64,000 nucleotides of DNA from Gammaproteobacteria bacterium (GCA_026398875.1 JAPLSB010000008.1:37986-101985), one strand, 5' to 3'. Shown: positions 7,712-63,119, counted from the first letter of the stretch. The notes: generated by a model from the sequence alone, not told the origin. A program made the numbers and translations.

Positions 7712-7739
7712 AGCAGCGAGCCAGGCGGTTCGCAGTACC

Positions 7740-7775: not shown

Positions 7776-7862
7776 GGGGCGCGGCAACTGGAATCGGGGC
7801 CAGCGCGACGGTACCGTGCGCTCCGCCGTTCAATTCCGCCACGTCGACCGAGGAAGCCCGCG

Positions 7863-40830: not shown

Positions 40831-41460
40831 TTACTGACCAGCCTTGGCGCCAGCCTCGACGTTGACCGTCGCACCGACCTTGGCGTTGGCGGCATTGGCG
40901 GCCGCACCGGCTGCGGCATTGACGCCGGCGTTGACGCCGGCAGCGGCGGCGCCGCCTGCGGCCTGCGCCGTCGAGCCGACCGCTGCCTTCGCACCGACCG
41001 CCGCATCCTTGGCAACGCCCACGCCGGCCTTCGCTGCGCCACCAACCGCACCTGCGGTGCCCTTCACGGCGCTGCCGGCCGCGCCAACCGTACCCTTGAC
41101 CGCCTTGCCGAGACCGAGGCCGAGGCCGACACCGGCGTTCGCGCCTGCCTTGCCTGCCTCGACAGTGGCTGCTGCACCGGCCTTGACGTCAGCCTGGGCA
41201 GCGGCACCGGCTTGGGCAGCGGCGGCAGCTTCGGCCTGAACGGCGGCGGCCTTGGTGGCGGCGGCATCGGATTGCAGACGCGCCTTTGCGGCTTCTGCGT
41301 CAAGACGGGCCTTGGCCGCAGCGTCGACATTGGCACTCAGCGCACCCGCGCTGACGCCCACGCCGGCGCCAGCGTCGAGCCCGATCGCCATCGACGGACC
41401 GGCGGCCGCAGCGGCGAACAGCGTGGTGAGGATGGCGGCGGGAATGAGTTTACGGTTCAT
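40831..41460 (-). CDS. Secreted Ala/Gly/Val/Lys-rich low-complexity protein
   Basis: Signal peptide MNRKLIPAAILTTLFAAAAAGPSMA, AGGAG RBS 8 nt upstream, terminator downstream. The mature part is almost entirely A/G/V/K/D/Q repeats. Confidence 0.7.
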   Translation of the reverse strand: MNRKLIPAAILTTLFAAAAAGPSMAIGLDAGAGVGVSAGALSANVDAAAKARLDAEAAKARLQSDAAATKAAAVQAEAAAAAQAGAAAQADVKAGAAATVEAGKAGANAGVGLGLGLGKAVKGTVGAAGSAVKGTAGAVGGAAKAGVGVAKDAAVGAKAAVGSTAQAAGGAAAAGVNAGVNAAAGAAANAANAKVGATVNVEAGAKAGQ

Positions 41461-43201: not shown

Positions 43202-44512
43202 GTGCAAATCAGCATTTTCGGAATGGGGTACGTCGGCGCCGTCTGTGCAGCCTGCCTTTCGGATTACGGGCATGACGTGATCGGTGTCGACGTGTCCGCC
43301 CTGAAGGTCAAGCTGATCAACTCCGGCCAGTCGCCGATCGTTGAGCCGGGTCTCGGCGAATTGCTCGAAAAGGGCGTGGCCGCCGGCAAGCTGCGCGCCA
43401 CCACCGATACCGAGGAAGCGATTCTGGGCTCGGAACTGACGATGATCTGCGTCGGCACGCCGAGCAAGCGGAACGGTGACCTTGACCTGCGCTACGTCGA
43501 TCAGGTCTGCCGCGAGATCGGTGCGGTGCTGAAGACCAAGTCAGCGCGCCACACCGTCGTCGTCCGCAGCACCGTGCTGCCGGGAACCGTCAAAAACGTG
43601 GTTATCCCAGCGCTCGAGCAGTCGTCCGGCAAGAAGGCCGGAGCCGACTTCGGCGTTGCCGTGAACCCGGAATTCCTGCGCGAAAGCACGGCCATCGCGG
43701 ACTATCGCGAGCCGCCGATGACGGTGATCGGCGAACTTGACGCCGCGTCCGGCGAAGGTCTGGCGTCGATCTACTCGGTGCTTCCGGCGGCCGTGTTCCG
43801 CCGCCCGATCGAAGTCGCCGAGATGGTCAAGTACACCTGCAATGTCTGGCACGCGACCAAGGTCACGTTCGCCAACGAGATCGGCAACATCGCCAAGGCC
43901 TGCGGCGTCGATGGTCGCGAAGTGATGAAGCTGATCTGCGAGGACGACAAGCTCAACCTGTCGTCTTACTACATGAAGCCGGGCTTCGCGTTCGGTGGCT
44001 CATGCCTGCCGAAGGATCTTCGCGCGCTGAACTACCGCTCCACGCAGGTCGAATCGGACAACCCGATGCTGGCCTCGATCATGCGCAGCAACGTGACTCA
44101 GGTCGAGCGTGCGTTCAATCTGGTCGCCGGTTTCGGCAAGCGCAACGTCGCGTTGCTGGGTCTTGCGTTCAAGTCCGGCACCGATGACCTCCGCGAAAGC
44201 CCGCTGGTCGATCTCGCCGAAATGCTGATCGGCAAGGGCTACTCGTTGAAGGTGTTCGACCGCAACGTCGACCACGCCCGCGTCATGGGCACAAACAAGG
44301 ACTACATCGACTCGAAGATTCCGCACGTCTCGAAGCTGCTGACGTCGAGCCTTGCCGAAGTGGTCGACAGCGCCGACATCGTCGTGCTCGGCAACAAGGA
44401 CCCGGAGTTCGCCGATGTCATTGCCAACCTGAAGCCGGGCGTGAAGCTCGTCGATCTCGTCGGCTTCATGCAGACGACGTCGACCGCCGACGCCCAGGGA
44501 ATCTGCTGGTAA
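43202..44512 (+). CDS. algD: GDP-mannose 6-dehydrogenase
   Basis: 436 aa, GTG start. (M)QISIFGMGYVGAVCAACLS...ICVGTPSKRNGDLDL...GFAFGGSCLPKD...ends GICW. Collinear with Pseudomonas AlgD as I recall it, including the catalytic Cys motif and the C-terminus. Confidence 0.95.
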   Translation: MQISIFGMGYVGAVCAACLSDYGHDVIGVDVSALKVKLINSGQSPIVEPGLGELLEKGVAAGKLRATTDTEEAILGSELTMICVGTPSKRNGDLDLRYVDQVCREIGAVLKTKSARHTVVVRSTVLPGTVKNVVIPALEQSSGKKAGADFGVAVNPEFLRESTAIADYREPPMTVIGELDAASGEGLASIYSVLPAAVFRRPIEVAEMVKYTCNVWHATKVTFANEIGNIAKACGVDGREVMKLICEDDKLNLSSYYMKPGFAFGGSCLPKDLRALNYRSTQVESDNPMLASIMRSNVTQVERAFNLVAGFGKRNVALLGLAFKSGTDDLRESPLVDLAEMLIGKGYSLKVFDRNVDHARVMGTNKDYIDSKIPHVSKLLTSSLAEVVDSADIVVLGNKDPEFADVIANLKPGVKLVDLVGFMQTTSTADAQGICW

Positions 44513-44542
44513 GGCGTTCACTGCCAGGTCCGCGAGCACGTC

Positions 44543-46081
44543 ATGAGCCAGTCCAACCCGGCTGACGCAGTTCAGTCCGATGCGTCGTGGCAGTCGCTGG
44601 TCCGCGATTTTGCAGGCTGGATATCGCTGCTGGCGCTGATCGGCGGTCTGGCACTGCTGTTGCCGGGCTTCACTTTCGATCCTTCGCAGTCGCATTTCCT
44701 GGTTGCGGTCGGCGTTGTCGGCTTGTGGCGATATGCGTTGCGCGCCGTGCATTTCGTGCGCGCGATGTGGTTCCTGTACGTGGCGTACCCGCGGATGCGC
44801 GAACGGGCCGCCATGGCAGGAGCCGCCTCGGATCCGTCGCAGGCGTACTTCATGGTCACCAGCTTCCGGATCGACGTCGAGACGACCGCCCGGGTGTATC
44901 GGGCGATCATCGAACAAGCGATTGAATGCGGCTACCGAAGCACGGTGGTCGCATCAATCGTTGAGTACGGCGACGAGCTGCTGATGCGCGCGCTCTGGGA
45001 CACCTACCAGCCTCCGGAGCGCGTCTCGCTGAAGATCGTGCGCATTCCAGGAACCGGCAAGCGCGATGGGCTTGCGTTCGGTTTCCGCGCCATTGCTCGC
45101 GACTGCCCGGATCACCGCGCTCTGGTGGCCGTGATTGACGGGGATTCGGTGCTCGTGCCCGGCATGATGCGCAAGTGCGCGCAGATGTTTCATCTGCTGC
45201 CCGACGTTGGTGCGATGACCACCAACGAGTTCTGCACCGTGCTGGGCTCGAAGCTGATGAGCGAGTGGCACAAGCTGCGTTTCGCCGAGCGCCATCTCAA
45301 TATGTGCTCGATGGCGCTCAGCCGTCGCGTGCTGACGCTGACCGGACGCATGTCGGTATTCCGCGCCCACATCGTCACTCAGCACTCGTTCATCTCGGAC
45401 GTCGAGAATGACTCGATCCTGCACTGGCGCCTCGGCCGAGTGAAGTTCCTGACCGGTGATGACAAGTCGTCGTGGTACAGCGTCGTCAAGCACGGCTGGC
45501 GGACCTTCTACCTGCCCGATGCCGCGATCGAGACCATCGAGCATCCGCCGAATCCGAGCCTCCTGAAAAGCAGTCGTACGCTGATGTTTCGCTGGTACGG
45601 GAACTCGCTTCGCCAGAATGGCCGCGCCCGCGAACTCGGGCCACGTCGGCTCGGCTGGTTCACCTATTACGTGCTGCAGGATCAGCGCGTGCAGATGTGG
45701 ACCGGTCTGCTGGGTCTGCTGGCGACGGTCCTGGCCAGCATCAAATACAACTTCAACTACCTGATCGTGTTCCTGGTCTGGATCGCGGTCACGCGCTGTC
45801 TGATGTGTGTGATGCTGATGACAGCAGGGCATCGCGTGGGTCCGCTGTATCCACCGCTGATGTACTACAACCAGGTGCTCGGTTCGATCATCAAGATCAT
45901 CGTGTTCTTCTTCCCCGACCGTCAGTCGTGGACGCGGCAGAAAACCACGCTGACCAAGCACCTGGACCCGTTCCACGCGCGTTTCAACACGCTGTCGTCA
46001 CGAATCATGCTGTTCTCGGCCTGCAGCGTGTTCGCGGCCGTTGTCACGACCATCGTCACCTTCAAGTCGCCGTTCGGCTGA
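44543..46081 (+). CDS. alg8: Alginate (mannuronan) synthase glycosyltransferase Alg8
   Basis: VTSFRIDVETTARVY...RIPGTGKRDGLA...VIDGDSVL...TNEFC...LTGRMSVFRA...LTGDDKSSW...RWYGNSLRQN are GT2/Alg8 hallmarks, with C-terminal TM helices. Confidence 0.93.
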   Translation: MSQSNPADAVQSDASWQSLVRDFAGWISLLALIGGLALLLPGFTFDPSQSHFLVAVGVVGLWRYALRAVHFVRAMWFLYVAYPRMRERAAMAGAASDPSQAYFMVTSFRIDVETTARVYRAIIEQAIECGYRSTVVASIVEYGDELLMRALWDTYQPPERVSLKIVRIPGTGKRDGLAFGFRAIARDCPDHRALVAVIDGDSVLVPGMMRKCAQMFHLLPDVGAMTTNEFCTVLGSKLMSEWHKLRFAERHLNMCSMALSRRVLTLTGRMSVFRAHIVTQHSFISDVENDSILHWRLGRVKFLTGDDKSSWYSVVKHGWRTFYLPDAAIETIEHPPNPSLLKSSRTLMFRWYGNSLRQNGRARELGPRRLGWFTYYVLQDQRVQMWTGLLGLLATVLASIKYNFNYLIVFLVWIAVTRCLMCVMLMTAGHRVGPLYPPLMYYNQVLGSIIKIIVFFFPDRQSWTRQKTTLTKHLDPFHARFNTLSSRIMLFSACSVFAAVVTTIVTFKSPFG

Positions 46082-46116
46082 TCGCGGCTCCTCCTTCTCG
46101 TCACGGAAACACTTGC

Positions 46117-47292
46117 ATGGCTCAACCAAGCCCCTCCCGGATCGTTCACGAGTCCGAAGCGCAGCGCCAGTTCGTCAGGGTCAAGCTGCCGGCGACGATC
46201 CAGTTCACTGCCGACGGTGCCCGCAAGCAGTTTCAGCTGCACGATATCTCTGCAGGGGGCTTCAGCTTCGACCCCGGCAGCGACACGCTGAAGGTTGGTG
46301 CCGTCCACACCGGCCACGTCGTGCTCAACGTCGACTCGGTCGGATTCACGATTCCGGTGACCTTCGAAGTCCGTACCGTCGATGCCCAGACCGGCCGCGT
46401 CGGCTGCTTCTTCCAGGAGCTCGGCATCAAGGAAGTCTCCGCACTGCGTCAGGTCATCACATCGTTCCTGGGCGGCGAACTGGTCAGCACCGGTGAGATG
46501 CTGACCACGCTGTCGCGCGAGAACTTCGTACGCGCCCGCAGCGGCGGCGGCGGTCTCAGTGCCGGCGGCAAGCTGCGCGCCATCATCGGCACGAGCGTCG
46601 CGCTGGTGGTCGGCCTGGTCGCCTTCAGCTACGCCGCCATCAGGCTCTATGACCTGGTGTTCGTCACCCATGCGACGGCAGCCAAGGTCGCGGCAACGAC
46701 CTTCACGATCAACATGCCGCGTGACGGCACCTTCTTCCCGCTGGTCAAAGAAGGCGGCACGATCAAGAAGGGACAGGCCGTCGGCCAGTTCGAGACGGCG
46801 CTGCTGCAGGTCGTCGAAGGTGTCTCCGGTTCGTTCAAGCTGACGGCGGAGCAGCTGACGGCGCTGATCGGCGAACAATTGCGCGGCTCGATTGCCAGCC
46901 CATGCGACTGCATCGTCCAGAAGGCCTACAGCGTCGGGGGTCAGTACGTGTTGCGCAATCAGGCCGTGATGGAACTGGTGCCGGAAGGCACCAAGCCGTA
47001 CATCCTGGCCCGCTTCCACTATGACCAGATGAAGCGCCTGCCGATCGGCCGCGAAGTCGTGCTGCGCGTCAACGGTTCGCCAGAAACGCTGACCGGCAAG
47101 GTCACGAACCTGCGCGTGCTGCCGGCACCGACGATCGACAGCAATGGTCTGAATGATCTGAACGGTCTCGATACCAGCGCCGCGATCACCGACATCATTG
47201 CGGTGATCACGCCGGACGTGGAACTTGAAACCTCGCGCATCGACCAGCCGGTCGAGATCTTCGTCGACCCGCTGAATCAGTACTTCCGGTGA
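46117..47292 (+). CDS. alg44: Alginate co-polymerase Alg44 (PilZ c-di-GMP receptor plus membrane-fusion-like domain)
   Basis: 391 aa. N-terminal PilZ with R17-QFV-R21 and D43-I-S-A-G-G48, a single TM (AIIGTSVALVVGLVAFSYAAI) and a periplasmic MFP-like C-terminus. Confidence 0.9.
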   Translation: MAQPSPSRIVHESEAQRQFVRVKLPATIQFTADGARKQFQLHDISAGGFSFDPGSDTLKVGAVHTGHVVLNVDSVGFTIPVTFEVRTVDAQTGRVGCFFQELGIKEVSALRQVITSFLGGELVSTGEMLTTLSRENFVRARSGGGGLSAGGKLRAIIGTSVALVVGLVAFSYAAIRLYDLVFVTHATAAKVAATTFTINMPRDGTFFPLVKEGGTIKKGQAVGQFETALLQVVEGVSGSFKLTAEQLTALIGEQLRGSIASPCDCIVQKAYSVGGQYVLRNQAVMELVPEGTKPYILARFHYDQMKRLPIGREVVLRVNGSPETLTGKVTNLRVLPAPTIDSNGLNDLNGLDTSAAITDIIAVITPDVELETSRIDQPVEIFVDPLNQYFR

Positions 47293-47299
47293 TGGCCTG

Positions 47300-49036
47300 A
47301 TGCGTTTTGTCGCCACAGCCGGTGTCGCTGCCCTGCTTGCCTGTTCTGCAGGCTGTTCGTCCGTTTCGGTCAAGACGGGAATCCCGGTCCTGAGCAAAGG
47401 CGGCGAAGGCATCCTGATCGATCAGGCGCGCGGCCTGCCTGATCTGGAACGCGGCAAGCAGGCGCGGCTATCGGGCAATCCGGACGCCGCGCTGCTCGAC
47501 CTGAAACCGCTGGCCGAACAGGGCTATCCGGATGCGATGGTCCAGCTCGCCGGCCTCTATCAGGATCGTGGAACGATCGCGAGCCTCGACGATGCCGAGC
47601 AGTGGTACCGCAAGGCCAAGGAATCAATCCCTGAAGCCGGCCTGTCGCTGGCCGGCCTTCTGATCAATCGCGGTAACCGGCAACTGATCCCGGAGATCGA
47701 CGCGCTGATCCGTGATGCGGATCGCCGCAGCAACCCGGAGGCGGATAGCGCACGTCTGAAACTGCTGATGCAGTTTCCGGATCTTGATGTCGACGGCGTT
47801 GGAGACAGGATCGTCAGGCGCGCCCTTGAGTCCGATCTTCCCGAAGTGCAGACGCAGGCACTGATCTGGTACCGGCTGAACATCGCGCGTGATGGCTACG
47901 CCGCGGCACTTGAGACCAGCTGCTCGAAGCTGCTCGAGGTCGACCCCGCGTGCTACGTCGACCTCGCCCACTTCTATCGCTACCGCGGCGAGCGCGACCG
48001 CCTGAACAAGCTGGTCGATGACGCGCTGATCGTGTTCCAGGCCGCAGCGGGCAACGGCACTGCCGACCGCGCCGATTCGGCGCGGCTGTATCGCGAACCG
48101 ATCGACTATGGCTCGCTGGCCGGTCGACTGGCGGCAGCGATGGTCGACGAAATGCTCGACGAAGACGACGACCTGGCGAAGGAGCGTCTGTCGGGTCTGA
48201 TTCAGGACGTCGAGGACGATGAAGCGACAGAAGCGCTGGTGTCGGCGCCACTGACCACCGACATCGTGTCCGAGACCCCCGGTGCCGCTGCAGCGGCTGC
48301 CCAGGCCAGCGCCACCCAGATCGTGGAACTGGCGGACAAGATCCTGCGCTGGATGCTGGCCAAGGACGCCGGCTTTCGCGCCGAAGCGGCGATCGTGGCC
48401 GTCCGGTTTCCGTTCCTGCTGCCGGAACTCGATCTTGAAGCCACGCTGCGTCCTGTCGTCGACGCTGGCGACCCGGCTGCCGCTCAGGCGCTCGCAAATC
48501 TTCTGTTCAACGGTCAGCGTGGCTACCGCAAACCCTACGAGGCGATCGACCTCTACAAGCGTTGCCTGAACTACGTCGAGACCAAGACCCGTGCCGAGAT
48601 GTCGCTCGGTCGCGCCTACCAGCTTGGCATTCTTGGCAATCCTGACCCGCAGGCGGCGCTGGAGTACTTCCTGCGCGCCGGACGCGCGGGGTCGGTACAG
48701 GCCTACATCGGCCTGGCGCGCATGTTCAGCGGCGTTCCCGGGGTTCGCCCGAACCGCGTCAACACCTATGTGTTCGCGCGCCGCGCACGGGACGGCGGTC
48801 GCTCGCTGCTGTTCCGCGTCCGCAAGCTGAAGCTGCTGACCACGTTGCCGGTCACCATCGACGCTGCGGAAATGTTCGACATCGAAAAAACCACGCTGCT
48901 CGACTACGTCAACGGTGAAATGACACCGCAGGAACGCGAGCAGGCGAAAGCCTTGTATGAAGCGGAGAAAGCGTTCCAGCCCGTGCTGAGGCAACCGATC
49001 CCGCCTGATATCTACACCAAAGGACGCGCTTCATGA
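47300..49036 (+). CDS. algK: Alginate secretion TPR/Sel1-like lipoprotein AlgK (elongated)
   Basis: Lipobox LLACSAGC. GYPDAMVQLAGLY and ...GRAGSVQAYIGLARMFSGVPGVRPNRVNTYVF parallel Pseudomonas AlgK. 578 aa, compared with about 475 aa as I remember it. Confidence 0.85.
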   Translation: MRFVATAGVAALLACSAGCSSVSVKTGIPVLSKGGEGILIDQARGLPDLERGKQARLSGNPDAALLDLKPLAEQGYPDAMVQLAGLYQDRGTIASLDDAEQWYRKAKESIPEAGLSLAGLLINRGNRQLIPEIDALIRDADRRSNPEADSARLKLLMQFPDLDVDGVGDRIVRRALESDLPEVQTQALIWYRLNIARDGYAAALETSCSKLLEVDPACYVDLAHFYRYRGERDRLNKLVDDALIVFQAAAGNGTADRADSARLYREPIDYGSLAGRLAAAMVDEMLDEDDDLAKERLSGLIQDVEDDEATEALVSAPLTTDIVSETPGAAAAAAQASATQIVELADKILRWMLAKDAGFRAEAAIVAVRFPFLLPELDLEATLRPVVDAGDPAAAQALANLLFNGQRGYRKPYEAIDLYKRCLNYVETKTRAEMSLGRAYQLGILGNPDPQAALEYFLRAGRAGSVQAYIGLARMFSGVPGVRPNRVNTYVFARRARDGGRSLLFRVRKLKLLTTLPVTIDAAEMFDIEKTTLLDYVNGEMTPQEREQAKALYEAEKAFQPVLRQPIPPDIYTKGRAS

Positions 49037-50433
49037 ACAGACCGTCGCTGTTGCCCATCGCTGCTGCAGGCCTTCTTGCAACGGCCAGCATGCCGTGCGC
49101 CGCAGTCGAGATCGGGACCGCACTGCGGACCTCGCTCGGCGGACAGGCCGACGGTGCGCGTGATCTTGGCCTCGGTGATCAGTCGAGCAACGAGATCCTC
49201 TACGTCAATCTCGCACCGCGGCTGTCCATCGAGTTCAGCCGTGACTGGGTCTTCTATCTGCGTGCGCGCGCCTTCATGCCGACCGGAGACGTGCTCGACA
49301 CCGATGAAGGTCAGACCACGCTGTCGCGCCGGGTCAGCAGCTTCGTCAAGCTCGACGAGGCATGGATGCGTTTCGGCGGATTCACCAGCTACCCGGGCGA
49401 GTCGGTGCGCATCGGCCACCAGTTCATTCGCGAGAACGAGCGCGGCTTCGTCGGTCGCGACGTCGATGCGCTGTACTGGGTGCTCAACACCACTCGATTC
49501 CAGTCGAGTGCCGGCGTGTTCTACCAGTTCAATGCCTACCGCTCGGACGGCATCGATCTGCCGCTCGATCAGCGCAAGCGCGTCTACGGCTACGGCAATA
49601 TCTCGACCGACTGGATGCCCCAGCATCAGGCCGGCTTCCGTGGCCTGCACGCTCGCGATGTCGGCGGGCTTCCGGGTTCCGGCCAGCCGATCAACGCCGA
49701 GACCAAGCTTGAAGAGGTCAATCTGACCTGGCTGGGCGTCTACCTGAGCAACGGGTATCTGAACCCGCGCAAGCCGAACACCTTCAAGTACTGGCTGGAC
49801 GCGACCTATCTGGTCGGCAACACGTTGTCGAACACCGTGGCGGCCAATCGCCTGACGGGCGGGCTGGACAAGCAATCGATCAGCGCGGTCGCCAGCACGG
49901 TCGGCGTGCGCTGGCGTCCGGGCGTGCTGCCGCTGCTGGTGGGTGCCGAGTACGCGTACAGCGGCGGCGGCACCCAGAGCCAGTACCGGCAGAGCGGCCT
50001 GCAGAGCAACGGGACGCCGTTCACCGGCATCACCACGTCCACCTATCGCTACAACGAGGCCTTGCGTGCGCAGCTCGGCAACCTGCGGGTCGCCACGCTT
50101 TACACCTCGTACAGCCTGCCGAACGACGAAGTGTCGTTGATCGTCCAGAAGTTCAACAAGGACGACCGCTTCGCGCCGATTCTCACCAACAACGTCTCGG
50201 CCGATACCGGCCCGTCCAGCGACATCGGCTACGGCATCGATGTGGTGGCAAGCCACTATCTGCCGACCTTCGGCGTACTGAAGGATCTGTACGAAGACGA
50301 CGACAGCGTCAGCGAGGATCCGCGTTCGGCGATCCGGCTGCGTGCCTCGCTGTTCAATCCCGGCAAGGCCTATGCGTCCGGCGCGGACATCAACTACCGC
50401 GTGATTCTCGAGGCATCGTTGTGGGTGTTCTGA
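49033..50433 (+). CDS. algE: Alginate export outer-membrane beta-barrel porin AlgE
   Basis: Signal peptide. TSYPGESVRIGHQFIRE, LTWLGVY, GAEYAYSGGG, QQSGLQSN-like segments and the terminal ...EASLWVF (aromatic C-terminus). ATGA overlap with algK. Confidence 0.9.
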   Translation: MNRPSLLPIAAAGLLATASMPCAAVEIGTALRTSLGGQADGARDLGLGDQSSNEILYVNLAPRLSIEFSRDWVFYLRARAFMPTGDVLDTDEGQTTLSRRVSSFVKLDEAWMRFGGFTSYPGESVRIGHQFIRENERGFVGRDVDALYWVLNTTRFQSSAGVFYQFNAYRSDGIDLPLDQRKRVYGYGNISTDWMPQHQAGFRGLHARDVGGLPGSGQPINAETKLEEVNLTWLGVYLSNGYLNPRKPNTFKYWLDATYLVGNTLSNTVAANRLTGGLDKQSISAVASTVGVRWRPGVLPLLVGAEYAYSGGGTQSQYRQSGLQSNGTPFTGITTSTYRYNEALRAQLGNLRVATLYTSYSLPNDEVSLIVQKFNKDDRFAPILTNNVSADTGPSSDIGYGIDVVASHYLPTFGVLKDLYEDDDSVSEDPRSAIRLRASLFNPGKAYASGADINYRVILEASLWVF

Positions 50434-52064
50434 AGGACCGCTGGCCTCGTCAATGCCGATCGCTTGCCGCCGGGCTGTTGCTCGCGGCGGCGTTCTGCGC
50501 CATGCCGTCGCGCGCGCAGGATGCGGTCGACGAGGCACTGCTGGCGAAATCGCTGAACGATGAATCGTTCGGCAATGACAGCGCGGAGAAAGGCAACTCT
50601 GCAGTCGTGCCGCAGACCGAAGCAGAGATCCGCAACGGCTACACGCTGAATGCGGCCGAGCCCGACAGCATTCCGGCGTTCGTCGCGCCGAAGCTGCCGT
50701 CGCTGGCCGACTACAGTTACGAAGCCGTACGCCAGAAGCTGGTCAAGCAAGGCACCGCCAGGATCGTCATCGGATCCTTGCTGAACGAACCCGGCTTTCG
50801 TCCGCTGACGTCAAACGCATCCGTCGGCCTAGCCGAGTTCTCGAAGCGTCAGGGCAACGGTGTCCGTGCCATTTACGTCGACAGCGGCGTCGCCACACTG
50901 AAAGACCTAGCCAAGGCCGTGCCGAGCGGTGACTTTGCCGAGGTGCAGCCCGGCGTGTTCATCGCACGCCTGCCGATCCTCGTGCGCCACGGCGCCACGC
51001 TCAACCTCACTGGTGCCGTGAAGGAGTTGCGTCTGTCGGCCGAGCGCGGAGCCGTGCTGGTGGTCGAAGGTCAGCTGAACGCCGTCGACAGCGCGATCGT
51101 CGGCTGGAGCGAAACCGCCGGGACTGCGGCCAAGCTCGGCAGCGTGGCGACGTTCCGCCCGTTCATCGTCTGCTGGGGTGGCGCGCAGTTCAATGCCGCG
51201 CGCATGCGCTTTGCGAACCTGGGCTACCCGGCGATCAAGGCCTATGGCCTGACCTTCAGCCATTACAGCGACGTGCAGCTGCAGGCGCAGATCTGGCCAC
51301 GGCCGATCGCGATGGTCACCGAGTCGACGCTCGAAGACCTCTGGTACGGCGTCTACTCATGGAAAGCCGGAAAGGTGGTCCTGAATGCCAACACCATCCG
51401 CAACAACCAGATCTACGGCGTCAACATCCGCGACCGCTCGACCGGGGTGATCCTGGCGAACAATGAAATCACCGGGACGCGCGTCAAGTACGGAATCTTC
51501 ATTGCCAACGATGTGGTGGGCAGCTGGATCATCGGCAACAAGGTCAGCGGCAACAAGCGCTCCGGCATCGTGCTCGACCGGCGCAGCCAGAAGGCCGTCG
51601 TGTCCGGCAACGTGTCGGCCAAGAACGGGACCGATGGCATCGTCGTCTCCGAGAGTTCCGACGTGCTGGTCTGGGACAACGTATTGTCGGGTAACCAGAA
51701 TCACGGCATCCGGGTGCGCAACAGCGTTGGCGCCCGGATTCAGGACAATACGTCGCTGGCCAACGGTCTGAGTGGGCTCTACGGTGGCGTCGTCGACGCC
51801 CGCACGGCCGGCAAGCGCGGCGCGGCGAGTGCCGGCAGCGGCAAGCGTCTGGAGATGACGGTGGTCGGTGGTGCCTATACCTCCAACGGCGCCGGCCCGT
51901 TCGGCCTCGATTACCCGACCACGGTCGCTTACTACAACATCGATCTGCGTACTCCTCAGCGTGCGCTCGGCTACCGCCTCGGCGGCACGCTGCTGCCGCT
52001 GCAGATCCCGTTTCTGGACATCCTGATGGCGCAGTCGAAAGTTGCAGTGCTGCAGGCGAAGTAA
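50421..52064 (+). CDS. algG: AlgG-like periplasmic right-handed beta-helix protein (mannuronan C5-epimerase homolog with a divergent active-site motif)
   Basis: 547 aa with a signal peptide. Parallel beta-helix repeats (NNEITGT..GIFIAN..GNKVSGNKRSGIVLDR..GNVSAKNGTDGIVV..DNVLSGNQNHGIRVRNS) are collinear with Pseudomonas AlgG. The GTG start overlaps algE by 13 nt. Confidence 0.85.
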   Translation: MGVLKDRWPRQCRSLAAGLLLAAAFCAMPSRAQDAVDEALLAKSLNDESFGNDSAEKGNSAVVPQTEAEIRNGYTLNAAEPDSIPAFVAPKLPSLADYSYEAVRQKLVKQGTARIVIGSLLNEPGFRPLTSNASVGLAEFSKRQGNGVRAIYVDSGVATLKDLAKAVPSGDFAEVQPGVFIARLPILVRHGATLNLTGAVKELRLSAERGAVLVVEGQLNAVDSAIVGWSETAGTAAKLGSVATFRPFIVCWGGAQFNAARMRFANLGYPAIKAYGLTFSHYSDVQLQAQIWPRPIAMVTESTLEDLWYGVYSWKAGKVVLNANTIRNNQIYGVNIRDRSTGVILANNEITGTRVKYGIFIANDVVGSWIIGNKVSGNKRSGIVLDRRSQKAVVSGNVSAKNGTDGIVVSESSDVLVWDNVLSGNQNHGIRVRNSVGARIQDNTSLANGLSGLYGGVVDARTAGKRGAASAGSGKRLEMTVVGGAYTSNGAGPFGLDYPTTVAYYNIDLRTPQRALGYRLGGTLLPLQIPFLDILMAQSKVAVLQAK

Positions 52065-52124
52065 TCGATCAACACCGTTGTTCAAGATCCAACCGTCCCC
52101 TCCAAGGGACTCGCGAGGCAAACG

Positions 52125-52748
52125 ATGAACAGTTTGAAGAAACTCCTGACGCTGATGGCCGTCACTCTGGTGGCGTTGATTCCGATGCAGGCAGCGGCGC
52201 AGCTGTACACCAAGGGCGCACCGCCGGGATCGGCCTTCATTCGCGTGCTCAACGGTACTGCCGCGCAGAGTCCGCCGGGCTTCATCGGCGAAACCCCGCA
52301 GCCGGCGCTCGCCGCGTTCACGGCAGGGCAGTTCACGTTCCTGCCGCCGGGCGAATACCCGGTGCAGATCGGCAGCCGCAAGGAAACCTTCAAGCTTGCC
52401 GCCGATCGCTTCTACAGCGTTGCCTATCTGTCGAACGGGCTGAAGAGCTTCGAGCTGGAAGGCTTCAAGAGCCAGCTGAAGGCCATGATCGTGATGATGA
52501 ACCTGCTGCCCGAGCAGACGCTGTCGCTGAAGACCGCCGATGGCAAGGTCACCGTGCTCGACGCGGTGGCGCCGTTCAAGGCGGGCCAGCGTGAAATCAA
52601 TCCGCTGTCGGTGTCGCTGGCCATCTTCGATGGCGACCGCAAGATTGCCGACGTGCCGGCCACGGTCTTCGAGCGTGGCAAGGCCTCCAGCCTGATCGTC
52701 GGTGGGTCGGCCGCGGTGCCGATCCTGACCTGGGACGAGCAGAAGTAA
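52125..52748 (+). CDS. algF: Alginate O-acetylation protein AlgF
   Basis: 207 aa with a signal peptide. LYTKGAPPGSAFIRVLNG...FLPPGEYPVQIG...LSLKTADGKVTVLDAVAPFKAGQREINPLSVSLAIFDG parallels Pseudomonas AlgF. Confidence 0.85.
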   Translation: MNSLKKLLTLMAVTLVALIPMQAAAQLYTKGAPPGSAFIRVLNGTAAQSPPGFIGETPQPALAAFTAGQFTFLPPGEYPVQIGSRKETFKLAADRFYSVAYLSNGLKSFELEGFKSQLKAMIVMMNLLPEQTLSLKTADGKVTVLDAVAPFKAGQREINPLSVSLAIFDGDRKIADVPATVFERGKASSLIVGGSAAVPILTWDEQK

Positions 52749-52781
52749 GCCAACCTCATCCGGACCAGAGCGCGGTTGATC

Positions 52782-54182
52782 ATGATCATTCCTCGGACCC
52801 AGGGCATCGCCGGCGTCTTGCTGGCGACGGCCGCGGCCGTCGCCACGACACCGGCGCGTGCTGCAGAGGCGGCTCAGCCGGCAACCCCGGTCTACCCGGC
52901 CGAAACCTGCTGTTCCGTGTGTCCGAAGGTCTATGACCGTGATGCGTACATCAGCGAGTACATGCGCGGCTACCGCATCATCGTCGAGGGCACGGACGGT
53001 TGGCTGTTCCGATCGGAAGCCGAACTGCAATGGGTTGAACCGGCCGACGACACGATCTGGCCGCAGCTGCGTCGCCTTGCCGACGCGCTGAAGGCGCGCG
53101 GCACGCAGGTGGTGATGTATCCGCAGCCACCGCGCGGTTTGATCGAAGCCAACAACCTCAACCCGGAAGATCTGAAGCAGTTCGATATCGACCTGCTGCA
53201 GAAGCGTTACAGCGACCTCGTGGCCAAGCTTCGCGGCCTCGGCTTCATCGTCGTTGATGCGTCCGTGTTCAGCCGCCACAGCGGCGATCCGTACTTCTTC
53301 AAGCGCGATGGTCACTGGAGCCCGGCCGGTGCGCGTGAAGCGGCGGCGGTGATCGCCAAGCAGATCAAGGAATCCGGATTCGAATTGCCGCCGGTGGCTT
53401 TTCAGACCAAGCAGATCGGGGTCGCCGGCGCGCGAGGCACGCTGTCGTTCGTCATCAACAGCCTGTGCGGCCTGAAGTACCCGATGGAGTTCAAGCCGGC
53501 ATTCCGGACCACGGCGCCGGCGTCTGACGACCTGTTCGGTGACGCCGAAGCGCCGCAGGCAGCGCTGATCGGCACCAGCTTTTCGGCAACGCCGAACTAC
53601 AATTTTTACGGCTTCCTGCGCGAGGACCTGCAGGCGGACGTGCTGCAGGCAGCGTTTCCAGGCGGTGGCTTCGATGGCGCACTGACCCAGTTCCTGGCCT
53701 CCGATCTGTTCCAGAAGTCGCCGCCGAAAGTGCTGATCTGGGAGTTCCCGTACCAGCAGCTGCATCGCACCGATACCGCCGTGATGCGCCGCATGCTGCC
53801 GCTGGTCAACAACGGCTGCACCGGCAAGGAAGCGCTGCTTACCGGCAAGACCACGCTGAAGACGGGCGGTCAGTTCGCGGAAGTGCTCGTCAACGGTGGC
53901 AAGTCCTTCAATTCGGTACCGGCCAAGGATGTCTGGCTGGAGCTGCAGTTCTCCGATCCGAACATCCGTTCGGTCAGTGCGGAAGTCTGGTACGGCAACG
54001 GCAAGGTCCAGACGATCAACAGCGAATACAACGTCTATACGAAAATGAGTGGCCGGTACGTGTTCGAGACGAACTATCTGCCGGACACCGAGGTCGAGCC
54101 GATCGTGTCGGTACGCGTCAAGAGCGTGACCGAAACCTCGGACAAGACGACCGTGACCGGCACCGTATGCAAGCGCGTCTGA
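52782..54182 (+). CDS. algX: Alginate O-acetyltransferase AlgX (SGNH-like domain plus C-terminal carbohydrate-binding module)
   Basis: FFKRDGHWSPAGA (D-x-H), LIGTSFS (Ser), KVLIWEFPYQQL and LPLVNNGCTGK are collinear with Pseudomonas AlgX. The start could be the TTG at 52776 or the ATG at 52782. Confidence 0.88.
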   Translation: MIIPRTQGIAGVLLATAAAVATTPARAAEAAQPATPVYPAETCCSVCPKVYDRDAYISEYMRGYRIIVEGTDGWLFRSEAELQWVEPADDTIWPQLRRLADALKARGTQVVMYPQPPRGLIEANNLNPEDLKQFDIDLLQKRYSDLVAKLRGLGFIVVDASVFSRHSGDPYFFKRDGHWSPAGAREAAAVIAKQIKESGFELPPVAFQTKQIGVAGARGTLSFVINSLCGLKYPMEFKPAFRTTAPASDDLFGDAEAPQAALIGTSFSATPNYNFYGFLREDLQADVLQAAFPGGGFDGALTQFLASDLFQKSPPKVLIWEFPYQQLHRTDTAVMRRMLPLVNNGCTGKEALLTGKTTLKTGGQFAEVLVNGGKSFNSVPAKDVWLELQFSDPNIRSVSAEVWYGNGKVQTINSEYNVYTKMSGRYVFETNYLPDTEVEPIVSVRVKSVTETSDKTTVTGTVCKRV

Positions 54183-54186
54183 TGCC

Positions 54187-55350
54187 ATGAATTACGGCCG
54201 CCTGACTATTGCCGGCTTCGCGATCACGATCGCGGCAACCACCGCTTGTCGCTCTGATCAGCGGCCGACCGAGCCGCTGCCTGCTACAGCGTCCAGCCCG
54301 GCTGCGTCGGGATCGGCTTCCGATGCGCGCCTGCGGGCGCCGGGTCAGTTTGCGATGGCGCCGGTCGGCAGCAAGAAGCGCGGTGGCGGCGATTGCGACG
54401 CCTCACTGCGTCCGTTCACGTCCGCGCTCGATTTCCCCAGCAAGTACGAAGGCTCGGGCAAGTCGCGAGACACGCTGAATACGGATGCCGATCGCCGCTA
54501 CAAGGCTGCAATGGCGGACTTGTCGACGCTCGAGACGACATCAGTCAAGGTGGTCGGACGCTACCTGCAGAACGGCGATGCCGCAGGCCTCGCCTGCATC
54601 GTCAAGGTTCTCGACAACTGGGCGCAGGTCGACGCCCTGCTGGGCCCCGCGCCGGAACACACCGGCCGGGCCGTCCGCAAATGGGTGCTCGCCAGCATCA
54701 GTGCGGCGTACCTGCGTCTGAAGCTTTCGCCGACCGCGCCGCTGGCAGAATTTGCCGACCAGGAAAAGCACATCGACGCCTGGCTGAGAAAACTGGGCAA
54801 CCGCGTGGTTGCCGAGTGGCCGACGGATGTCCCGCTGAACAAGGTCAACAACCATTACTACTGGACGGCCTGGGCATTGGTCGCCACCGGCACGGCACTC
54901 AACGATCGCGCGCTGTTCGAGTACGGGCTGCGCATCTACCGGATATTCGAATCGCAGGTCGGCAACGACGGGGTGCTGCAGAACGAGTTGAACCGGAAGT
55001 CGCGCGCCCTGGAGTACCACGTCTACGCCCTCGGTCCGCTGGCGCTGGTCGCGGCATTCGCGAATGCCAATAGCTATCCGGTCGACGTCTCGCCGACCGC
55101 GCCGCTGTCGCGGCTGGCGGCACTATCGTTCTCCAGTCTTGGCAATCCGGACATCCTCGCCGGCCGCGCCGGCGCGCGACAGGAAACCTTTGACAGCGCC
55201 GCCACCAACTATGCGTGGATGGAACCGTATTGCTACGTCGCGCAATGTCCCGACGCGATGCAGCAGCAGCTGGCCAGCGTCCGGCCGCTCAGCAGCACGC
55301 GCATGGGCGGGAACCTGACCCAGATCTTCGACCGGCGCACGACACCGTGA
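54187..55350 (+). CDS. algL: Alginate lyase AlgL (PL5 family)
   Basis: NNHYYWTAWAL (PL5 NNHSYW motif), LQNELNRKSRALEYHVYALGPL, YAWMEPYC. 387 aa with an N-terminal signal/lipoprotein-like region. Confidence 0.9.
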   Translation: MNYGRLTIAGFAITIAATTACRSDQRPTEPLPATASSPAASGSASDARLRAPGQFAMAPVGSKKRGGGDCDASLRPFTSALDFPSKYEGSGKSRDTLNTDADRRYKAAMADLSTLETTSVKVVGRYLQNGDAAGLACIVKVLDNWAQVDALLGPAPEHTGRAVRKWVLASISAAYLRLKLSPTAPLAEFADQEKHIDAWLRKLGNRVVAEWPTDVPLNKVNNHYYWTAWALVATGTALNDRALFEYGLRIYRIFESQVGNDGVLQNELNRKSRALEYHVYALGPLALVAAFANANSYPVDVSPTAPLSRLAALSFSSLGNPDILAGRAGARQETFDSAATNYAWMEPYCYVAQCPDAMQQQLASVRPLSSTRMGGNLTQIFDRRTTP

Positions 55351-56228
55351 ACAGAACACTTTTTGCGCTTGGGCTCATCGGTCTGCTGGCCGCGCGACCT
55401 GCGCTGGCGGACAACCAGGCCGATGCACTGCGTTACGTCGCCATCTGCCAGAACGAGATCAAGCGCGCCGCGGATCTGCTGAACGCCGCGAAGATCTGCA
55501 AGGAATCGACCGAAAACATTCGCGTGCTGGTCGGCGAATCCCCGCTGTACGTCGGCAACCTGATCACCGAAGCGGACAACAAGGTCGCGCTCGGCAACTA
55601 CCCCGCAGCGTTCGATCTGTACTCGCTTGCCGCCAATGCCGCGGACCATCTCGGTGATGCCGCGAAGGTTCGTGCCTTGCGCATTCGTCAGGCCGACGTC
55701 CAACTGTCTCGCGGCAAACCGTTCCACGCCGAAATCCTGTTGCGCGATGCATTGACGCGGCTTCGAGCGCTCCCGCGCAGCCGAGAACTGGCGACCGAAG
55801 AAGCCGACCTGCTCAGCCGTCATGCCGCAACGCTGACCGCGCTCGATCAGCTGCCGGCTGCCATTGCAGAGTTTCAGGAAGCCTTGGCCCGTCTGGAACT
55901 GGCACCTCCTTCGGCGCGACCGGTGGCCATGGCCGTGTGGTCGCGTTACGGCGACGCACTGGAGCGGCGCAATCGCTACGGAGATGCCCTCGAAGCCTAT
56001 CGGCGCGTGCTGACACTGGCGCGGATCAACCCGGTGGATCACGTTCAGTCGAGCTACGCCTACCAGCAGATCGGGTGGATGCATGAGCTGATGCACAACC
56101 CGAACGACGCAATCGCGACCTACCGGAAGCAGTTGCAGGTGCTGAAAAAGCTTCCCGAGCAGCAAGCCGTCGCCACCGAGATCACGCGTCGACTCGCGGC
56201 TCTGGGTGCTGCGCCGGAACCAGGCTGA
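55347..56228 (+). CDS. Secreted TPR-like repeat protein (an extra gene, not part of the canonical alg operon)
   Basis: A GTG at 55347 overlaps the algL TGA (GTGA). Signal peptide (V)NRTLFALGLIGLLAARPALA|DN. Repeated A-x-x-x-Y/F-x-x-A-L helical-hairpin motifs (GNYPAAFDLYSLAA, LPAAIAEFQEALARL, YGDALEAYRRVLTLA, PNDAIATYRKQLQVL). Confidence 0.65.
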   Translation: MNRTLFALGLIGLLAARPALADNQADALRYVAICQNEIKRAADLLNAAKICKESTENIRVLVGESPLYVGNLITEADNKVALGNYPAAFDLYSLAANAADHLGDAAKVRALRIRQADVQLSRGKPFHAEILLRDALTRLRALPRSRELATEEADLLSRHAATLTALDQLPAAIAEFQEALARLELAPPSARPVAMAVWSRYGDALERRNRYGDALEAYRRVLTLARINPVDHVQSSYAYQQIGWMHELMHNPNDAIATYRKQLQVLKKLPEQQAVATEITRRLAALGAAPEPG

Positions 56229-56285
56229 GCGCGCAGCGCGCGGAATACACAGACATAGCAGTCGAACGGCAACAGGATCGAATCA

Positions 56286-57449
56286 ATGACGGACAAGAGT
56301 GCACCCGGCGCGGCATCGGGGACGGGTATGAAGGGCGGCTACGCAATCGTCGGCATCGTCTTTGCGCTGGTCGTCGGCGCACTGTCTCTGTCGAGCGTGA
56401 AGGCAGTCGCAACTTATCGCGCGCCACCGGTGACGGTGCTTGACGGCGCGCTGGTCCGCAACTTCGAACAGCACTTCGACAAGGAGTTCCCGCTGCGCAC
56501 CGCCAGCGTGAACTTCTGGACGGCGCTGCAGCTCGTGCTGTTCCGTGAGGGCAAGATCGGCGTGCTGCTCGGTCAGGACGGCTGGCTGTACTCGAACGAA
56601 GAGTTCCATGTGCTGCCGCGCTGGGAGCAGATCATCGAGCAGAACCTCGAAGTGATCCGCTGGACCCAGACCACATTGTCGGAGGCCGGGATTCCGCTGG
56701 TGGTGGTCGTGGTGCCCGAAAAGGCGCACATCTATCCGGAGCATGTCGGTGACCATCGCCAGGCGACGGCGCATGGGCAAGTGATGGCGCGGCTGCGCTC
56801 GGCGATCAGCGAGCAGACCACGCTGATCACGCTCAACGAGACCTACGCTGCCGCCAAGGCCACGCAGCCGCTGTTCTTTCACACCGACACCCACTGGACG
56901 CCGACTGGCGCACGAATCGCGGCACGCGCGGTGACCGATGCGATGAAGGCCAAGGGCCTCGCAACCAAGGTCGATCAGCCGGCGGCGTTCTCGACCACCG
57001 AGCAGCCAGAAACGAGCTTCGCCGGCGATCTGCTGTCGTTCCTGCCGCTGGAGCCGATGTTCCCGAGCCTGATGCCGAAGGCGGATACCTACATTCCGGT
57101 GGCCACCAAGGCCATCGAGAAAGAGGCCAGTGCCGATGCGCTGCTGGGTGACGAGTCGGTGCCGGAAGTGGCCGTCGTCGGCACCAGCTACACCGCCAAC
57201 GATCGCTGGAACTTCCAGGGCTACCTGAGCGAGTTCCTGAACGAACCACTGGCCGACTATTCGAAGGAAGGCATCGGCCCGTTCCCGCCGATGGCGCAGT
57301 TCCTGACCGGTCCGGACTACGCCAGCCACAAGCCGCGCGTGGTGATCTGGGAGATTCCGGAGCGTTCTCTGCTGGGCAAGGCCGCACTGGCGGGTATCCC
57401 GCTGCCGGAATCGCTGAACACCAAGCTGGCCTCGATCAAGCCGAGATAA
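56286..57449 (+). CDS. algJ: Alginate O-acetyltransferase AlgJ (membrane-anchored AlgX/AlgJ SGNH-like family)
   Basis: N-terminal anchor YAIVGIVFALVVGALSL. GQDGWLY, VVVVVPEK, FFHTDTHWTPTGA (D-x-H), VVGTSYT (Ser). 387 aa. Confidence 0.85.
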   Translation: MTDKSAPGAASGTGMKGGYAIVGIVFALVVGALSLSSVKAVATYRAPPVTVLDGALVRNFEQHFDKEFPLRTASVNFWTALQLVLFREGKIGVLLGQDGWLYSNEEFHVLPRWEQIIEQNLEVIRWTQTTLSEAGIPLVVVVVPEKAHIYPEHVGDHRQATAHGQVMARLRSAISEQTTLITLNETYAAAKATQPLFFHTDTHWTPTGARIAARAVTDAMKAKGLATKVDQPAAFSTTEQPETSFAGDLLSFLPLEPMFPSLMPKADTYIPVATKAIEKEASADALLGDESVPEVAVVGTSYTANDRWNFQGYLSEFLNEPLADYSKEGIGPFPPMAQFLTGPDYASHKPRVVIWEIPERSLLGKAALAGIPLPESLNTKLASIKPR

Positions 57450-57453
57450 GCGC

Positions 57454-58884
57454 GTGGTCTTTTCATCAAACGCGTTCCTGCTGCTGTTCCTGCCGCTGTT
57501 CCTGCTGCTGTATTACCTGACCCCGAACACCCGCCGGCTGCGGAACTATGTGGTTCTGGCCGCCAGCTACGTGTTCTACGGCTGGTGGCGGCCGGACTTC
57601 CTGTCATTGCTGATCTCGGTCACGCTGTTCAACTTCGTGATCGGCCGGCAGATCGGCATTGCCGGCGCGCGGACCAGCGAAGCACGGCGCTGGATGCGGC
57701 TCGGCGTGGCTGTCGATCTCGCTGTGCTCGGCTACTTCAAGTACCGCGACTTCGGCATCGAAAGCTTCAACTCGATCATCCAGGCCACCGGGTTCGAGCC
57801 GTTCACGCTGTCGGAACTGCTGCTGCCGATCGGCATCTCGTTCTACATCTTCGAATCGATCAGTTACATCATCGATGTCTACCGCGGCAGCGTGAAGCCG
57901 ACGCGGCATCTCGCCGATTTCGCGACGTTCATCACGATGTTCCCGCATCTGATCGTCGGCCCGCTGTTCCGTTACAAGGAAATGGCCGCACAGCTGGAAC
58001 ACCGCGTCCACTCGATGGACATGTTCGGGCGCGGCGCCGTGCGCTTCATGCAGGGCTTCGTCAAGAAAGTCGTCATCGCCGACACGCTGGCGCCGATGGT
58101 CAACTACTGCTTCGCGCTGCCCGATCCGAGCACGGCTGACGTCTGGATCGGCGTGCTTGCCTATGGCGTGCAGCTGTACTTCGATTTCTCCGGCTACAGC
58201 GACATGGCGATCGGCCTTGGCCTGATGATGGGCTTCAAGTTCGTCGAGAACTTCAACAAGCCGTTCATCAGCCAGAGCGTCACCGAATTCTGGCGCCGCT
58301 GGCACATCAGCCTCAGCAACTGGCTGCGCGACTACGTGTTCTATTCGCTCGGCGGAACTGCCCGCAAGACGCGCATGCGGCTGCATTACATGACGTTCAT
58401 GACGTTTCTGATCGGCGGCATCTGGCACGGCGCGAACTGGACGTTCGTGCTCTGGGGCGCGTTGCAGGGAGGGCTGCTGCTGTTCGAACGGATGTTGGGC
58501 GTGAACGGCAATCCGACACGCTTCAAGTTTCAGCACTGGGCACTGACATTCATCGTTGCGGTTGCCATGAGCATGGTGCTGTTCCGCGCTGACAACGTGT
58601 CGCGCGCAGCCGAAATGTACAAGTCGATGCTGTTCTTCCAGAACGTCGGCTGGATCAGCGAGCCGTTCGCCGGCGCCATCAGCACCATGCAGATCGCCAC
58701 CCTGATCCTGGCCTACGGGCTGGTGATCTTCGAGGGCCTGCGCGAGTACGGCCCCAAGATCCAGCTCGGCAGCGAGCGGGTTCGGGTGGTGTCGTCGGTG
58801 CTGCTGCTGACGCCGCTGTTCTTTCTCGCGATCACAAAGTTGTCGGCTCAAGGCTACTCGGCGTTCCTGTACTTCCAGTTCTGA
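57454..58884 (+). CDS. algI: Alginate O-acetylase AlgI (MBOAT), copy 1
   Basis: 476 aa, GTG start. FLLLFLPLF..., GISFYIFESISYIIDVYRG, FWRRWHISLSNWLRDYVF (MBOAT His). Confidence 0.93.
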   Translation: MVFSSNAFLLLFLPLFLLLYYLTPNTRRLRNYVVLAASYVFYGWWRPDFLSLLISVTLFNFVIGRQIGIAGARTSEARRWMRLGVAVDLAVLGYFKYRDFGIESFNSIIQATGFEPFTLSELLLPIGISFYIFESISYIIDVYRGSVKPTRHLADFATFITMFPHLIVGPLFRYKEMAAQLEHRVHSMDMFGRGAVRFMQGFVKKVVIADTLAPMVNYCFALPDPSTADVWIGVLAYGVQLYFDFSGYSDMAIGLGLMMGFKFVENFNKPFISQSVTEFWRRWHISLSNWLRDYVFYSLGGTARKTRMRLHYMTFMTFLIGGIWHGANWTFVLWGALQGGLLLFERMLGVNGNPTRFKFQHWALTFIVAVAMSMVLFRADNVSRAAEMYKSMLFFQNVGWISEPFAGAISTMQIATLILAYGLVIFEGLREYGPKIQLGSERVRVVSSVLLLTPLFFLAITKLSAQGYSAFLYFQF

Positions 58885-58937
58885 CAGGCACCGCCCTTTC
58901 CTTGAGCCCAATAAAAATGAATCCCTGGTAAGCCCCC

Positions 58938-62859: not shown

Positions 62860-63119
62860 CCTCGTCAATGGATTGCGGGTGGCTGCGCGTGGCGCAGCCG
62901 CTGGTCGTCTGATCCCGATGATGACTGAAAGGTTGCATCGATGACCCCGCCATCCAACCCCTTGCCGCCATTTCCAACGGAAACGATGCGTCCGACGCTG
63001 CCGATGGAAATCCGTTTTGAAGCCGTTGGCATTCCGGGAGGACCTGGCGGGGGACGAGTACCGACGCCGGCCGCGTCTGATCAACCTCGTCCGTCCGGAA
63101 GCTGATCCGGTGGCAGCCG

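Follow-up and report, generated by a model that had tools for sequence, protein, structure and literature searches.

Does an AlgG homologue that has lost the residues held to be responsible for mannuronan C5-epimerization still serve in polymer production, and if so, in which role? This question is raised by a 64,000-nucleotide stretch of a Gammaproteobacteria genome assembly (GCA_026398875.1, JAPLSB010000008.1:37986-101985; the whole stretch is referred to as the window), in which an AlgG homologue is encoded within an alginate operon. An earlier note on this DNA had claimed that the homologue reads NIRD in place of the DPHD epimerase motif and Asn in place of the downstream Arg, that no DPHD occurs elsewhere in the protein, and that, barring another epimerase or a different chemistry, a scaffold-only AlgG with an essentially unepimerized polymannuronate (poly-M) product is to be expected. 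On the evidence presented below, the protein is probably an epimerase-dead AlgG retained as a periplasmic scaffold, a reading that predicts an O-acetylated polymannuronate as the polymer.

Replacement of the active-site residues

Residues of canonical AlgG are numbered here as in the Pseudomonas syringae enzyme (P. aeruginosa numbers are higher by 7). The carboxylate neutralizer is taken to be Arg345, and PDB entry 4NK8 to be the D317A mutant, in line with the PDB titles and with a sequence difference in the alignment. In the characterized enzymes, abstraction of the C5 proton has been proposed for the His of DPHD, Tyr314 holds the re-protonating water, and the Arg neutralizes the carboxylate in the Ca2+-independent AlgG (PMC4444821, PMC8824271).

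A phmmer comparison with the PDB placed amino acids (aa) 75-543 of the window AlgG on P. syringae AlgG (PDB ID: 4NK6) with an E value of 4.3e-98 and with no gaps through the catalytic coils, where the segment running from NNQIYGV to GIFIANDV lay on that running from DNIVYGI to GIIISREV. As summarized in Table 1, this ungapped alignment put NIRD on DPHD, with only the last Asp kept, and Asn363 on the neutralizing Arg, in good agreement with the earlier note. The damage proved to extend further than the note had described, since His339, Ser344 and Glu346 were also replaced, as were Gly279, Trp280, Glu297 and Ile312 in the coil preceding the motif, the last four having been read from columns at least 95% conserved in 58 canonical relatives. 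Altogether 21 of the 92 columns with at least 95% conservation in canonical AlgG were altered in the clade of variant proteins described below, and 13 of those 21 fell within aa 297-363. Tyr314, Asp320, Arg321 (of DRS), Lys338 and the HGIRVRNS coil of canonical AlgG were retained.

A string search of the 547-aa translation detected no DPHD, DxHD, DPH or PHD anywhere in the protein, as had been claimed, and neither the alignment nor the structure match revealed a register shift; a true DPHD located elsewhere in the protein is thus ruled out. The structural superposition that the earlier note had called for was performed with an AlphaFold2 model for which an alignment of 64 sequences served as input (mean predicted local distance difference test score 89.7), which Foldseek superposed on 4NK6 with a template modelling (TM) score of 0.95 normalized to the target and a root-mean-square deviation of 1.8 Å, revealing the right-handed parallel beta-helix of the AlgG type. 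The gapless alignment together with this superposition excludes a register error.

Against the NCBIfam AlgG model NF038177, the protein scored 406.2 bits, under the equivalog cut-off of 700 bits, and in the phylogenetic tree it was nested inside AlgG. By homology, fold and context, the last including its place 3' of algE and alongside alg8, alg44, algK, algX and algL, it is a member of the AlgG lineage that fails both the catalytic definition of the family (the last Asp alone remains of DPHD and Asn363 stands at the position of Arg345, although Tyr314, which serves to place the catalytic water or His, is present) and its equivalog threshold.

Distribution of the variant

A word-indexed search yielded 65 homologues, among the clusters of which the variant state was found in only three, namely P0001 (99% identity to the window AlgG; NIRD), P0002 (84%; NIHD, KYGI and AND) and P0003 (79%; SIHD, KYGI and AND). 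The canonical relatives from the same search carried DPHD, His339, Ser344 and Arg345 without exception (58/58). When the 220 proteins obtained at E<=1e-30 from an exhaustive search of 1.84 billion representatives were pooled with the earlier matches, DPHD, the His and the Ser-Arg pair were seen in 194 of the 213 alignable family sequences; the departure of the window AlgG from this pattern is far beyond chance. In addition, a metagenome scan by N-terminal patterns gave two loci, of which the useful one (L017) was a metagenome contig encoding a 94% identical protein with NIRD, KYG and AND. The possibility that NIRD is a common variant was thereby ruled out, the motif being confined to the lineage of the window (the query, P0001 and L017).

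Sequencing error is excluded because the changes recur in sequences obtained independently from other samples, which differ synonymously in the same codons (CGC or CGT for Arg337, AAC or AAT for Asn363). Relative to the 84% relative, the His → Arg change amounts to a single A → G transition (CAC → CGC). Across the three lineages of the clade, position 335 reads N/N/S and position 337 R/H/H, both being invariant in the canonical relatives, and Tyr357, Ala362, Asn363 and Asp364 are identical in all members despite synonymous codon changes. The operons of the 84% relative (L001, from the Lysobacteraceae metagenome-assembled genome (MAG) BC.045, GCA_013823855.1) and of the 79% relative (L002) showed an identical gene order, and the same operon with the same AlgG variant is thus found in three lineages.

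Selection on algG and conservation along the protein

The ratio of nonsynonymous to synonymous substitution rates (dN/dS, or omega), calculated pairwise by the Nei-Gojobori method among the three lineages (the window and the 84% and 79% relatives), was 0.09-0.12 for algG, as compared with 0.09-0.12 for algX, 0.07-0.08 for algK, 0.05-0.14 for algL, 0.02-0.09 for the genes of cytoplasmic and membrane proteins and 0.02-0.17 over all 13 operon genes. algG is under purifying selection and is not decaying. Pseudogenization of the gene or operon, or an assembly error, could be argued from the NCBIfam score below the equivalog cut-off and from the long stem branch of the clade, but its probability is close to negligible, as five independent sequences all have an uninterrupted open reading frame (ORF) and the fold is predicted with confidence; decay of the gene or operon, in particular, was refuted by the omega values themselves.

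The distribution of conservation along the protein was then distinct from that of canonical AlgG. When the value for the whole protein was subtracted from that for the catalytic coils (aa 291-340), the difference in conservation was -0.037, -0.054 and -0.075 in the three variant pairs, whereas these coils were over-conserved in 42 of 42 canonical pairs of 75-90% overall identity (mean +0.115, minimum +0.006). The drift at positions 335 and 337 and the lost extra conservation of the coils are what relaxation at a dead active site would predict, although this relaxation rests on three lineages and the power of the comparison is limited. The protein thus combines the features of a pseudoenzyme, which are loss of essential residues, purifying selection with an intact fold, and a relaxed former active site. 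By contrast with the catalytic coils, the groove coils (aa 341-415) were over-conserved within the variant clade (+0.09 to +0.12) as they are in canonical AlgG (+0.105).

In the neighbour-joining tree, the variant clade was sister to a canonical Nevskia-like group (P0004-P0012) and was borne on a long stem. Relative rates were compared gene by gene between the window and two canonical operons, L006 (Gammaproteobacteria MAG LacPavin) and L007. For algD, alg8, alg44, algJ and algI, the identity between the window and L006 (0.79-0.95) exceeded that between L007 and L006 (0.67-0.90). For AlgG the order was reversed (0.51 between the window and L006, versus 0.71 between L006 and L007), which was the largest reversal among the operon genes, smaller ones being seen for AlgK, AlgX, the TPR protein, AlgL and AlgE. 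The excess divergence of AlgG was confined to aa 291-415, where identity between variant and sister proteins was 0.44-0.59, as against 0.65-0.80 between the sister and more distant canonical AlgG; outside this region, the variant was equally close or closer. On these comparisons, the groove coils were heavily rewritten once, with the part after the former active site remaining constant since, and this constancy of aa 341-415 fits continued binding of the polymer, or of a partner protein, by the groove.

The comparison between the window and L006 was strongly bimodal across the operon as well, AlgD, Alg8, Alg44 and AlgI being 90-95% identical and AlgK, AlgE, AlgG, AlgX, AlgL and the TPR protein just 45-66%, so that the periplasmic/outer-membrane module either has a much higher rate of evolution or co-evolves as one unit.

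Comparison with known epimerases and mutants

The window AlgG resembles the AlgG of Pseudomonas and Azotobacter in its full-length homology (35-40% identity), fold, signal-like N-terminus and position after algE. It differs in lacking Asp317, Pro318, His319, His339, Ser344, Arg345, Gly279, Trp280, Glu297 and Ile312, and in that the highest conservation within the protein no longer falls on the catalytic coils. A parallel is offered by the epimerase-negative mutants obtained in the laboratory, a lineage that traces to algG4. As in the variant, the DPHD residues are lost and the protein is retained in these mutants (D324A and other DPHD substitutions; PMC4436075); however, they carry single engineered or selected changes, while those of the variant are natural, multiple, clade-wide and under purifying selection. 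The point mutants yield high-molecular-weight acetylated polymannuronate, whereas deletion mutants yield only lyase-degraded fragments. In P. aeruginosa, AlgG(D324A) reduces the guluronate (G) fraction to zero (FG=0), with polymer still being made, acetylated and of higher molecular mass (PMC4436075), and the P. fluorescens strain PF20118 with an epimerase-deficient AlgG is the source of poly-M employed as a substrate for tailoring alginates (PMC8824271).

The A-module of AlgE4 (PDB ID: 2PYG) is likewise a beta-helix, and enzymes of the AlgE type lack an Arg neutralizer as the variant does. They do, however, possess the motif YG(F/I)DPH(D/E), of which the variant lacks the very DPH residues that AlgE enzymes keep; the match to 2PYG was marginal in sequence (E value 0.002), the TM score in structure was 0.34-0.37 normalized to the query and 0.47-0.52 to the target, and a Pfam search of the window AlgG found no AlgE-type R-modules or RTX repeats. 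The protein thus does not qualify as an AlgE-type enzyme.

Other degenerate AlgG branches

Erosion of the active site was also observed in independent branches of the family, including P0040/P0041 (DLHE/DLHD with SGA/SGK), P0056 (AAHD), P0067 (AVRE/SSD), P0096 (SVRG/SGG) and a few others. Like the variant, P0040/P0041, P0056, P0067 and P0096 are in-operon proteins with a broken DPHD and/or a lost Arg345. P0040, P0041 and P0056 are the sole AlgG-like genes on their alginate-operon contigs. In L024 (4720-7957), the degenerate AlgG with SVRG/SGG is followed directly downstream by a fully canonical AlgG with DPHD/SRE, and in L023 (189-1865, 8809-10365) the degenerate in-operon AlgG with AVRE/SSD is accompanied by a divergent beta-helix gene with DPHD beside algD. 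P0067 and P0096 thus share with the window protein an Arg at the position of the His, but have as a neighbour a DPHD-bearing paralogue, which is locally absent in the window clade. In the pairs of L023 and L024, the scaffold and the enzyme seem to have been divided between two genes in nature; they lend support to the scaffold idea and, at the same time, make a distant second epimerase possible for the organism of the window.

The His → Arg change at the position of the base was seen in three independent degenerate lineages (the query, P0067 and P0096), each without Arg345, and its recurrence could mean that the carboxylate contact has moved, or no more than that this transition is the likeliest one where GC content is high. 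In L020, the operon of P0041 (DLHD/SGK), no algL was present between algX and the TPR gene. L023 further encodes, at 6278-8818 and in place of algK and algE, an 846-aa protein with an Alginate_exp barrel only at aa 414-835, which may be an AlgK-AlgE fusion. P0100, P0110, P0116, P0126 and about 60 others are proteins of 1000-1280 aa with the AlgG-like domain in the C-terminal half, and their N-terminal halves showed no Pfam match or only TPR_19.

Proposed role of the variant AlgG

From the above we infer loss of epimerase activity, a scaffold role and an unepimerized product, and propose the following course of events. The ancestor of a small Lysobacteraceae-like clade would have lost Asp317, Pro318, His339, Ser344 and Arg345, and the lineage of the window would later have lost the proposed base His319 through the His → Arg change. 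Alg8 and Alg44, judged by homology, would polymerize GDP-mannuronate, and the chain would run unepimerized along the AlgG groove inside an AlgK/AlgX/AlgG/AlgE assembly, where AlgG would provide binding and protection without proton abstraction, the His319 base, its Asp317 partner and the Arg345 neutralizer being absent. The gene would have persisted because alginate production depends on AlgG itself as a component of the periplasmic scaffold, by which the elongating chain is guided and protected; purifying selection taken together with Pseudomonas genetics suggests that AlgG may be structurally required for the polymer to escape degradation by AlgL. The two AlgI proteins with AlgJ, AlgF and AlgX would then acetylate the chain, giving acetylated polymannuronate. 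As acetylated mannuronate (M) residues are not epimerizable (PMC4432689), and as the operon contains two AlgI genes, heavy acetylation could, speculatively, have made an epimerase dispensable.

The scaffold-only AlgG foreseen in the earlier note fits the omega of about 0.1, the intact fold, the intact-looking operon and the lost constraint on the catalytic coils; the remodelled and conserved aa 341-415 nevertheless leave room for a groove function that is changed rather than absent. That region, remodelled and then strongly conserved, is one of several observations that weigh against an epimerase-dead scaffold, because it is also compatible with a new activity. The equivalents of Tyr314 and Asp320 are kept throughout the clade, and P0002 and P0003 retain the His. 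Moreover, the two degenerate in-operon AlgGs of L023 and L024 lie near a DPHD-bearing paralogue, so that G residues could come from another enzyme, and the patterns used for the scan of the related MAG ([NH]HGIR[LVI]RNS and [FY]RPFIV[SCG]WG) miss many canonical AlgGs.

These points bear on two kinds of alternative, the one placing an epimerase elsewhere and the other placing new chemistry in AlgG itself. AlgG could be dead while a second epimerase, either an AlgG paralogue or a secreted AlgE-type enzyme, is encoded elsewhere in the genome, in which case the product would be ordinary alginate. L023 and L024 provide the precedent, and the majority of organisms that make alginate have several epimerase genes (PMC4444821). 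A tblastn search of the 64-kb window, taken to E=10, found only AlgG itself, and Pfam found no second AlgG among the remaining ORFs; likewise, the genes called on the L002 contig and in L001 up to 10 kb on either side of algG included no other beta-helix protein, a negative of little weight as the MAG may be incomplete. Three other NCBI-sourced matches that were checked as possible second copies (P0008, P0063 and P0065 not being included in this check) all came from different assemblies. We thus consider a second epimerase possible, though doubtful.

With respect to AlgG itself, the protein could still be a C5-epimerase in which a metal ion at Asp338, Asn363 and Asp364 replaces Arg345, much as Ca2+ is proposed to stand in for the Arg in AlgE-type epimerases and pectate lyases, and in which Tyr332/Tyr357 and His337 (Arg337 in the window) act as proton shuttles. 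The retained Tyr314, Asp320 and (in P0002 and P0003) His, the fixation of Tyr357, Ala362, Asn363 and Asp364 through synonymous changes, and the high conservation of aa 341-415 within the clade speak for such chemistry, as does the existence of Arg-using AlgG and pectin lyases versus Ca2+-using AlgE4 and pectate lyases (PMC4444821, PMC8824271). It nevertheless appears improbable, given that the positions of Asp317 and His319 vary within the clade, as catalytic residues would not be expected to do, that the extra conservation of the catalytic coils is gone, and that D324A alone abolishes the activity in P. aeruginosa (PMC4436075). Conversion of the site to lyase-like beta-elimination, with Tyr or Arg as the base and Asn as the neutralizer, or to a regulator of chain length or acetylation, is a quite remote prospect: epimerases and lyases have their first two mechanistic steps in common and in M-specific lyases Tyr is paired with Asn, Gln or Arg (PMC4444821), AlgE7 is bifunctional (PMC8824271), AlgG(D324A) alters chain length and acetylation in P. 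aeruginosa (PMC4436075), and the variant gained Tyr357 and Asn363 and, in aa 341-415, changed in a burst and was strongly conserved thereafter, but the operon already contains an intact AlgL and the positions of the former base and Asp drift within the clade. More generally, the groove might have been rebuilt into a new site, whether for an Arg345-independent and possibly metal-assisted epimerase or lyase-like chemistry or as a dedicated non-catalytic clamp. This view, for which the burst in aa 291-415, the conservation of aa 341-415 and the gained Tyr357, Asn363-Asp364 and Arg337 can be cited, with Arg337 re-supplying the carboxylate contact that was lost with Arg345, seems to us unlikely, and the epimerase-dead scaffold is preferred.

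Organization of the operon and its surroundings

The alginate operon detected by Pfam, NCBIfam and ORF calls comprises 13 genes on the + strand (43202-60362) in the order algD, alg8, alg44, algK, algE, algG, algF, algX, algL, TPR gene, algJ-like, algI and algI, with the algG ORF starting at GTG (Table 1). Alg44 possesses the PilZ motifs RxxxR and DxSxxG, AlgX retains D-x-H and GTS, NNHYYW is present in AlgL, and DTHW and GTS are present in the AlgJ-like protein; the genes around algG thus look catalytically intact. The identities of these motifs are in part taken from PMC4436075.

Table 1. Positions of the alginate operon, of the altered AlgG regions and of neighbouring genes in the window.
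Feature	Position (nt)	Strand	Remarks
algD, alg8, alg44, algK, algE	43202..50433	+	Precursor supply, polymerase, export
algG homologue	50421..52064	+	547 aa; hydrophobic, signal-like segment at the N-terminus; right-handed beta-helix
Catalytic coils, aa 291-340	51291..51440	+	Conserved below protein average in variant clade, the reverse of canonical pairs
Further lost invariant residues, coil before motif	51309..51410	+	G279 → A297, W280 → M298, E297 → K315, I312 → Q330
Tyr332	51414..51416	+	Equivalent of Tyr314, kept (4NK6 alignment)
NIRD for DPHD, aa 335-338	51423..51434	+	D317 → N335, P318 → I336, H319 → R337; D320 kept as D338
Groove coils, aa 341-415	51441..51665	+	Strong divergence from canonical AlgG along the stem; within the clade, the region of highest conservation
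Tyr357 for invariant His339	51489..51491	+	KHGI → KYGI; one coil below Tyr332
Ala362-Asn363-Asp364 for Ser344-Arg345-Glu346	51504..51512	+	S344 → A362, R345 → N363, E346 → D364; N363 ends at nt 51509
algF, algX, algL, TPR gene, algJ-like, algI, second algI	52125..60362	+	Acetylation and lyase genes
algF	52125..52748	+	
TPR-repeat gene	55347..56228	+	Overlaps algL stop
algI	57454..58884	+	MBOAT
Second algI	58938..60362	+	MBOAT
M13 peptidase gene	60808..63084	-	
Candidate ORF	40831..41460	-	209 aa

The tandem MBOAT algI paralogues are approximately 61-63% identical to each other's orthologues. Since L006, L007 and L008, which are canonical sister operons, have both genes too, the duplication is older than the change in AlgG. 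The TPR-repeat gene, located between algL and the algJ-like gene, is conserved in L001, L002, L006, L007, L019 and L020 and does not belong to the classical Pseudomonas operon; it is the fastest-evolving member of the operon (omega of about 0.15). algF is placed between algG and algX and not near the 3' end, and the operon ends without a closing algA, the next gene encoding an M13 peptidase. About 1.7 kb upstream of algD, a candidate ORF encodes an alanine-rich, signal-peptide-like protein of low complexity. The remainder of the window, with a GC content of 65.8%, encodes core housekeeping proteins according to Pfam (ArgRS, HemB, TrkAH, CstA, Def, DprA, TopA, HemF and PDH E1/E2), and an Rfam scan of the window returned zero matches.

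Implications

The dual role of AlgG as enzyme and scaffold is known, to our knowledge, only from laboratory mutants. A report of a natural epimerase-dead AlgG was not found in the searchable literature, and according to a 2015 review, no mannuronan-producing organism had been identified in nature (PMC4444821). The acetylated polymannuronate proposed here is a prediction; if it is correct, the clade would represent a natural separation of the two roles of AlgG, with the scaffold maintained under selection without the catalytic residues, and would indicate where acetylated polymannuronate is produced in nature. That the active site of AlgG has been eroded repeatedly among environmental Gammaproteobacteria, with or without a paralogue, suggests that epimerization can be dispensed with more readily than has been assumed in bacteria other than Pseudomonas and Azotobacter, and the state of DPHD, His339 and Arg345 may provide a sequence marker with which the type of polymer could be predicted from metagenomes.

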